From positions 25,916,001 through 25,980,000 of the forward strand of contig OZ024755.1 in NCBI GenBank assembly GCA_964016885.1: 64,000 nt of DNA, given 5' to 3'. The position numbers and the translations under genes were made by a program. This document shows, piece by piece, positions 30,446 through 31,127 of the stretch. The notes under the pieces were generated by a model, which saw only the letters and a list, made by a program, of their open reading frames with translations, made no database searches and was not told the DNA's origin. How positions within the stretch are numbered: the first letter of the stretch is position 1; the number at the start of each line of letters is the position of its first letter. The DNA is from Eledone cirrhosa (Eukaryota).

Positions 30446-30719
30446 GAGCACCAACAGGCATACATACACATGCGCGTAAACACACACACACACACACACA
30501 CACACACACACACACACACACATATATATATATATATATATATATATATATATATATATATATATATATATATATATATATATATATGTAGAAGTTTTAT
30601 TTAAATTGTTGGGATACAACAAGCAAATATTTTTATAACTGATATAAAGCACTCAACAAATGATTGGAGTAAAAATACGATATATTAACAAATGGAAACT
30701 ATATTTATAAAACCATATT

Positions 30720-30784
30720 TATTTCATTATACATATTTCAAGGACACCAAGTCAAATTATGGTGCGCTTTCATCAGATAAAATA
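30720..30784 (-). ncRNA. Hammerhead ribozyme, mirror copy in left arm of palindrome (family A)
   Basis: Reverse complement of 30941-31005. Confidence 0.78.
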
Positions 30785-30940
30785 TAATATAGATCAGTTT
30801 TATAAATAAATATTGACATACCCTTAAAGAATGCGACCATTTCTGTTGGAAGCTCCCGGGAGCTTCCGGGAGCTTCCAACAGAAATGGTCGCATTCTTTA
30901 AGGGTATGTCAATATTTATTTATAAAACTGATCTATATTA

Positions 30941-31005
30941 TATTTTATCTGATGAAAGCGCACCATAATTTGACTTGGTGTCCTTGAAATATGTATAATG
31001 AAATA
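30941..31005 (+). ncRNA. Minimal type I hammerhead ribozyme (family A)
   Basis: Stem I tattttat/atgaaata, CUGAUGA 30949-55, stem II aag..cacca/tggtg..ctt, GAAA 30986-89, short stem III, AUA cleavage after 30997. Confidence 0.8.
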
Positions 31006-31127
31006 AATATGGTTTTATAAATATAGTTTCCATTTGTTAATATATCGTATATATATATATATATATATATTATTTGTCTGTCACACACCCCGTGGATTGT
31101 CCCTCTCTGTCTCGACGTCTGGCCACA

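Follow-up and report, generated by a model that had tools for sequence, protein, structure and literature searches.

The window analyzed here is a 64,000-nt stretch of the Eledone cirrhosa genome (contig OZ024755.1, positions 25,916,001 to 25,980,000 of the forward strand). It contains exons of an Argonaute gene (ArgoN, ArgoL1, and ArgoL2) at 6644-13887 on the minus strand, a zf-RVT remnant at 20214-21236 on the minus strand, a LINE reverse transcriptase (RT) remnant (RVT_1) at 49753-51866 on the plus strand, and a 21-nt tandem array at 1859-4100. Copies of a ribozyme-bearing repeat lie at least 16 kb upstream of the first Argonaute exon seen. Three of them, which an earlier note on this DNA had placed at 30589-31049, 55780-56047, and 61490-61722, were found at these positions. 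The features are as follows, with A and B designating the two sites at which arms of this family end.

30587-30862, minus strand: copy 1, tailed arm, a 5'-truncated pLTR ending at site B and abutting (TA)n; 97-100% identical to 40 scored genomic copies
30589-30674, minus strand: copy 1, tail, 86 nt of element sequence from site A to site B
30651-30670, minus strand: copy 1, stem A (ACUC...GAGU), a few nt 3' of site A
30720-30784, minus strand: copy 1, type I hammerhead motif of the tailed arm; predicted cleavage after 30728
30863-31049, plus strand: copy 1, inverted arm, ending at site A and abutting (TA)n; 1 mismatch in 188 nt against the other arm
30941-31005, plus strand: copy 1, type I hammerhead motif of the inverted arm; predicted cleavage after 30997
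32227-32262, plus strand: 36-bp remnant of a fourth copy of the same family, ending near site A, inside (TATC)n
52620-52945: hammerhead palindrome of another family (the fifth described below), with a CUGAGGA core and a centre almost fixed in 30 loci
55776-56047, plus strand: copy 2, a single arm of the youngest subfamily that ends at site B and is flanked on each side by (TA)n
55849-55914, plus strand: copy 2, hammerhead motif (CUGAAGA); predicted cleavage after 55906
55963-55982, plus strand: copy 2, stem A
61490-61604, minus strand: copy 3, arm ending at site A, carrying the hammerhead motif
61531-61595, minus strand: copy 3, hammerhead motif; predicted cleavage after 61539
61601-61722, plus strand: copy 3, arm ending at site B, without a ribozyme

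All three copies are insertions in (TA)n that lack their 5' part, and they come from three young subfamilies of a single Penelope-like element (PLE). The three copies are 78-90% alike, and each subfamily is 97-100% alike inside. For copy 2, all 40 scored genomic matches were at 100% (rounded). Copy 3 gave no match when used as a DNA query against the genome in a search that skips common words, despite the presence of 100% copies among the fetched loci. A short duplication is found near the arm junction of copy 1 (30853-30872). Site A lies near 55957 in copy 2 and near 61632 in copy 3, where stem A is at 61638-61657. Stem B, a twin of stem A lying past site B, is present only in whole elements. 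The earlier note had described an extra tail of 85-90 nt on one arm only; it measured 86-89 nt and was confined to a single arm. The same note had all three copies sharing the ribozyme, and the motif is indeed in each, but the tail-bearing arm of copy 3 lacks it. Both the hammerhead in the pLTR and the one-sided tail are already known biology.

The region around copy 2 is a nest of short inverted insertions in (TA)n. A head-to-head insertion at 52990-53240 has a CUGAAGA hammerhead motif on its minus arm, and its longer arm carries ACUC-CG-GAGU a few nt past the end of the short arm. At 54277-54960, each arm of a perfect 253-nt palindrome carries a hammerhead-like core, CCGAAGA, in which C replaces U4; stem II is long, and one side only has an extension, of about 170 nt. 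Another perfect palindrome, of 205 nt, lies in (TA)n at 56670-57111 and has a one-sided extension of about 35 nt; no hammerhead core was found in it, and we take it to be Naiad-like. More short inverted elements in (TA)n were seen at 54113-54175, 55260-55610, and 55650-55740.

The motif at 30941-31005 comprises CUGAUGA (30949-30955), GAAA (30986-30989), and a self-complementary stem III, AUAUGUAU. A descriptor scan detected type I hammerheads at 30949(+), 30776(-), 55857(+), and 61587(-), plus three more motifs of other families near 52.8-53.1 kb, and it put the predicted cleavage site after 30997, the position given in the earlier note. The components of a minimal type I hammerhead, namely, the core CUGANGA/GAA/UH, helices I and II, and a palindromic helix III, are all present. 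Rfam returned no match at the gathering score for the window hammerheads. Folding of 30941-31005 gave an extended stem I (z=-2.9); the full three-way junction was absent from the monomer folds (z values of -2.9, -1.1, and -0.3), a result to be expected of a dimer-type motif. A 27-nt pattern from the 3' half of the ribozyme had 30,233 exact matches in the 3.0-Gb genome, and the reversed control had none. There are thus about 30,000 ribozyme-bearing arms genome-wide, with whole copies (pLTR, 743-amino-acid [aa] RT/GIY-YIG open reading frame [ORF], pLTR) besides.

The pairing claims of the earlier note fared unevenly. Among the window copies, the core varies only at N7, as it had stated. The change in stem I from tattttat/atgaaata (copy 1) to tattttgt/acgaaata (copy 2) is real, but the swap passes via G·U, the state found in copy 3; for the pair concerned, 63 of 140 arms had AU, 68 had GU, and 7 had GC. 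Pairing in stem II, said to hold throughout, does so only in part: in copy 2, the first pair is U·U and a higher one is A·A, and at one position standard pairing is found in only 97 of 139 arms. Elsewhere in stem II there is one clean two-sided swap (UA in 81 arms, CG in 54) and one three-state pair (AU in 58, GC in 60, GU in 17). Hydra ribozymes often have U·U as their basal stem II pair, judging by the portion of File S2 of PMC8557442 used here.

Selection on the ribozyme was examined on a tree of 142 arms, with changes sorted by branch size (at least 3 tips versus 1 or 2 tips). The 12 core columns had 14 changes on the small branches and none on the large ones, while N7 had 3 and 6, respectively. 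Loop II and the upstream flank together had 89 changes on small and 50 on large branches (Fisher p=0.005 versus the core). Core nucleotides diverging as fast as the flanks, the outcome that the earlier note had named against selection, was not seen relative to the upstream flank. Six of the 12 core columns lay inside the 27-nt search pattern and were preselected; for the six unselected columns alone, p was 0.047 versus the upstream flank and 0.17 versus loop II. The downstream flank was as invariant as the core, partly because it forms the extended stem I. Judged from sequence comparison, the ribozyme is likely under selection. That part of the earlier claim is supported by a core without lineage-level change, though regions outside the core are constrained as well and pairing is lost at some stem II positions. 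No imprint of cleavage was found on the 5' ends: nine arms have their 5' end at GAAA or farther 3', and none of these ends coincides with the cleavage site. This is consistent with unprocessed RNA being the main template, as described for another PLE in the part of PMC11167929 used here. Most arms run intact across the predicted cleavage site, so the ribozyme would act on a precursor RNA.

The parent element was searched for among loci that extend upstream of window-type copies into a coding region. Of the 15 loci chosen, 14 were taken because of their long frames and the remaining one because it had two copy-2 pLTRs. L119-L123 contain open frames of 743-746 aa. L126 has the copy-1 pLTR at both ends (97.8%), with a frame broken after 635 aa, and L129 has the copy-2 pLTR at both ends (100%), with an interrupted frame. 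An autonomous RT-GIY-YIG element ending in this pLTR, which the earlier note had proposed to look for, does therefore exist, and its assignment of the window copies to Penelope pLTR insertion products stands. A whole element is organized as pLTR (hammerhead, site A, stem A, tail, site B), stem B, ATG, 743-aa ORF, 1.5-kb 3' untranslated region (UTR), and pLTR. The leader between pLTR and ATG is about 50 nt, and the pLTR-to-pLTR unit is about 4.2-4.3 kb (L126 and L119). An inverted 5'-truncated copy, pLTRs from partial tandems, and a one-sided tail occur in L119, L124, L126, and L129. A separate observation concerns L055, where an RT fragment of a different PLE-type family (6701-7298) is joined in reverse to the pLTR of this family.

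The protein carries RWR at residue 37, DKT at 118, YRDD at 352, CNCRNKSNC (CxCX5C) at 601, YVG at 635, CDLC at 699, and CRH at 726. The motifs given for the Hydra clade are RWK and DKT in the N-terminal region, a CxCX5C linker, and CxxC and CxH in the endonuclease (section 11 of PMC8557442); RWR has R for the K of RWK, as in Hydra-1_Crog. A CCHH motif was not seen by eye in the 743-746-aa frames. Pfam gave no RT or GIY-YIG match on the element's protein and, on seven homologues, a single GIY-YIG match, below the cutoff, in one of them. A PDB sequence search with a 77-sequence profile gave no matches. The predicted fold had a pLDDT of 89.6, and its top match was TERT (3du5; E value, 5e-9). The homologues listed for the element's protein include one from Argonauta hians. 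As in the part of PMC8557442 covering the Hydra clade, which lists an octopus member, there are a single ORF with a C-terminal endonuclease, a canonical hammerhead near the 3' end, and (TA)n targets. The unit of about 4.2 kb exceeds the clade's norm of less than 3 kb because of the 1.5-kb 3' UTR; since that text says "generally," we read the size as a variant and not as an exclusion. On its motifs, the element would be a new, abundant family belonging to the Hydra clade and working like it. A non-autonomous, retrozyme- or MITE-like family without a coding parent was rejected as scarcely credible: the window copies are short and noncoding, as it would have them, but whole coding elements share their pLTRs at 97.8-100%, the 5' ends are variable, and the window copies never form head-to-tail arrays.

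Next, the ends of the arms were mapped. We took the first 100 pattern matches on C1 by position and mapped every arm in those 89 loci. The 130 arms ended at A (62 arms) or B (63 arms), apart from 1 that continued into the ORF and 4 that ended elsewhere; 118 of the 125 terminal arms run into TA-type repeats. Site B lies beyond site A by 86-89 nt, which is the length of the tail. Among 47 head-to-head pairs, 2 were dropped (truncated partner or cut at the locus edge), and of the 45 scorable pairs, 43 were A+B, 1 was A+A, and 1 was B+B (binomial p=3e-11). In a stricter set (middle at least 70% element, or spanning beyond one fetched locus), 38 of 39 pairs were A+B. The longer arm can end at A or B (compare L119 with L124). 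The one-sided tail is the gap between two fixed ends, A and B. At the head-to-head junctions, we found short overlaps, templated repeats, and palindromes; short overlaps and templated repeats are marks of microhomology-mediated end-joining. Three loci (L252, L266, and L277) have a (TA)n run followed by a 5' end precisely at site A or B, with the stem retained; the element's own TA patch may have been the place of insertion or of joining in these cases.

Both ends precede a repeated stem. In 17 natural leaders, ACUCC...UUGUUGAGUGCUUUA after A recurs as GCUCC...UUGUUGAGCGCUUUA after B, 91-94 nt farther on. The repeat score was reached by at most 2 of 2,000 shuffles in six of seven copies and by 44 of 2,000 in L121. 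Stems A and B are predicted to have 4-5 bp, A-U closed in one and G-C closed in the other. The ends lie about 5-10 nt 5' of the RCUC...GAGY stem; the last non-TA base is 8-11 nt 5' of the stem and is followed by a TA patch of 3-7 nt. The U·G variants, found as GGGU in 2 of 149 arms and as a U·G pair in Hydra-1_Obim, suit the sense strand. Minimum-free-energy folds of the whole leader contained stem A in four of four families and stem B in one of four; stem B also forms in the alignment fold and when folded alone. No two-sided covariation was found within stem A or B inside the window family, and the A-U/G-C swap is seen between stems and between families.

The other three of these four families, X, Y, and Z, were obtained by a search with part of a homologue. 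X and Y are 44-46% identical in protein to the window family and to each other, and Z is 41% identical over 229 aa; X and Z are 68% identical and hence related, so the four families amount to three independent lineages. Stems in X, Y, and Z were marked before the 3' ends were read, with three 5' junctions beside stems already visible, and an end was counted if it was no more than 14 nt 5' or 2 nt 3' of a stem. These windows made up 10-15% of the leaders. Terminal arms ended at the premarked stems in 33/35 (X), 31/33 (Y), and 24/24 (Z) cases. For X (first 30 of 1,382 matches), 26 of 35 arms ended at A, 7 at B, and 2 elsewhere, and 3/3 scorable pairs were A+B; the skew to A may be due to partners lying beyond the 1.5-kb flanks. 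For Y (first 30 of 7,865 matches), 33 arms comprised 14 at A, 17 at B, 1 running into the ORF, and 1 other, and 10/11 pairs were A+B, including three that span 9-11 kb and were scored without their middle sequence. For Z (first 20 of 859 matches), 12 arms ended at A and 12 at B, six upstream pieces split by an indel being excluded as ends; 4/4 pairs were A+B by script and 2 more by eye. Stem spacing was about 92, 99, 138, and 106 nt in the window family, X, Y, and Z, respectively, and tail length tracks this spacing. Between ribozyme and ATG, GAGY occurs exactly twice in every one of the four leaders, both times with an RCUC upstream; the spacer between RCUC and GAGY runs from 10 to more than 100 nt, with complementarity retained. 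Both stems were in place in 0-1 of 5,000 shuffles per family.

A fifth family, that of the palindrome at 52620-52945, has a GCUC...GAGC stem 3 nt past its A end and a tail of about 65 nt; among 30 loci picked for the tail, 26 were A+B, 2 were B+B, and 2 were other. Across species, the stem was read by eye in six published consensus sequences (File S7 of PMC8557442, as used here in part), five of which show one. Both stems precede the ATG in Hydra-1_Ajap, one stem lies past the ribozyme in each of Hydra-2_Ajap and Hydra-2_Amil, Hydra-1_Obim has one stem with a U·G pair, Hydra-1_Crog has two imperfect stems, and no stem was seen in Hydra-1_Amil. That one of two inverted pLTRs bears a tail was already known, according to the excerpt of PMC3846280 used here. 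What is new here is the repeated stem at both ends and the A+B pairing rule. The literature searched, from which older papers and the supplementary figures of PMC11167929 fell outside the scope, contained neither the stem motif nor the pairing rule or a pair count. The earlier note, whose claims of known biology were upheld, had missed these two features and the clade.

We think it probable that A and B are two reverse transcription start sites, each set by a repeated RNA stem, and that their joint use yields the one-sided tail. In such a programmed twin priming, the endonuclease would cut both strands of (TA)n, and two protein units would dock on the RNA, one at stem A and one at stem B. Each unit would take one 3'-OH and pair it to the UAU/AUA patch 5-10 nt 5' of its stem. 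Both cDNAs would be extended toward the RNA 5' end and stop early, and end-joining would link them head to head, so that the tail remains on the B arm only. Loss of one cDNA would leave a single arm, e.g., copy 2. A broader proposal, which we hold only slightly more readily than its opposite, is that Hydra PLEs carry a clade-wide, two-copy RNA docking signal that loads two telomerase-like RT units and makes twin priming built-in and obligatory. The signal would consist of the RCUC...GAGY helix with a UA patch 5-10 nt upstream, and the tail would equal the spacing of two signals. Most B arms extend past site A, so strand displacement would be required on a single RNA; the template may instead be two RNAs or a tandem RNA. 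Points that speak against the scheme are the exceptions to the pairing rule (2 of 45 pairs, and the 2 B+B in 30 loci of the 52620-52945 family), the shortness of the stems, the presence of stem B in only one of four whole-leader folds, the lack of two-sided covariation within either stem, and the skew of family X to A.

Alternatively, A and B could be primed independently, with the inverted arm arising later via fold-back, template switching, or the upstream inverted arm of the donor and with the stems acting as ordinary binding or folding elements that have no one-to-one role. Whole donors often do have an inverted arm upstream (L119, L124, L126, and L129), and 7 of 20 short pairs have 5' ends no more than 10 nt apart (permutation p=0.02), as fold-back would give. 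We nevertheless consider this unlikely, since fold-back or inherited arms predict many A+A and B+B pairs, against 2 of 45 observed, and the part-tail arms and the long arms found on either side suit two primings. The motif might also be read in DNA, the endonuclease recognizing it in donor DNA or cDNA and cutting 5' of it, thereby trimming the ends. The Drosophila virilis Penelope endonuclease needed the tail for recognition (as described in the part of PMC11167929 used here), and L252, L266, and L277 start right at A or B after (TA)n. The (TA)n targets, however, lack the motif, and a spacer so variable, with complementarity kept, suits an RNA helix better than a DNA site; recognition in DNA thus appears very unlikely to us. 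In yet another scheme, the element would prime itself on an antisense template, as proposed in PMC3846280 (part used here), and the stems would be stop signals like the telomerase template boundary, making A and B the ends of synthesis. The stem forms on both strands because RCUC and GAGY are reverse complements, and junction palindromes do occur. We regard stop signals on an antisense template as decidedly improbable: in the antisense strand, a U·G variant would read as a C·A mismatch, the ribozyme motif sits on the sense strand, stopping leaves the A+B pairing unexplained, and initiation at the tail borders was measured for another PLE (PMC11167929, same part).

The proposed twin priming set by two stems, and the element itself, have relatives among known systems.

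In LINE-1 twin priming, both target strands likewise prime on element RNA and produce an inversion, but the internal site taken by the second primer varies and the arms cover separate stretches of the RNA. In the present family, neither site varies, and the template stretches covered by the two arms usually overlap. Another parallel is the Poseidon PLE PAc of Anolis (PMC11167929), for which both strands were cut and extended in vitro, two internal start sites bound the tail, a dimer was predicted, and insertion was independent of ribozyme cleavage. Its sites lie in the ORF at an AC-rich stem loop without target homology, whereas here the 5' leader contains the ends, each at a TA patch of 3-7 nt that is followed by a repeated stem; that text does not pair up one site per arm. 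From the Hydra clade as treated in the cited part of PMC8557442, the window family differs in its tail (86-89 nt, versus 30-40 bp quoted for PLEs) and in its ribozyme, which is unlike that of Hydra-1_Obim; the repeated stem and the A+B rule go unmentioned there. The minimal metazoan PLE hammerheads (PMC4209133, relevant part) are also of type I, with a palindromic short helix III suited to dimers, opposite-strand copies 100-700 bp apart, and covarying families, but here helix I is longer (8 bp plus an extension of about 17 bp) and helix II has two parts with a C·C mismatch. Non-LTR retrozymes (bioRxiv 10.64898/2026.07.22.740005, relevant part) are noncoding type I hammerhead copies related to pLTRs; theirs are head-to-tail tandems, in contrast to the head-to-head or single truncated insertions of a coding element found here.

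The origin of the PLE head-to-head repeats and one-sided tail was named as a next task by Craig et al. in 2021 (PMC8557442, section used), and Frangieh et al. in 2024 located two start sites, for which the text used here gives no sequence rule (PMC11167929). If the stems are docking sites, insertion ends would be predictable from sequence, the stems would offer mutable targets for an in vitro assay, and the nearest mobile relatives of telomerase would have in them a minimal RNA element to which they bind. Young families with many open frames are available in this genome as substrates.

Several further features of the leaders and families were observed. In L119 (3086-3300) and its kin, UUCCAUUU, just 5' of site A, is predicted to pair over a long range with the start codon region, and a second predicted helix, between CAGUUAUAA and UUAUAAC(U)G, has site B and stem B inside it. 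Both pairings are nearly invariant. Many copies of family Y (L262-L278 and other matches) have open frames of 830 aa, and the tandem spacing is about 6.6 kb. The stem II of its ribozyme is very long, both stems contain long inserts, and the family looks recently active. About 290 nt upstream of the match in L254 (minus strand), the ribozyme of family Z apparently has a U3-A8 core variant (by eye), a variant that has been described for Schistosoma Cercyon.
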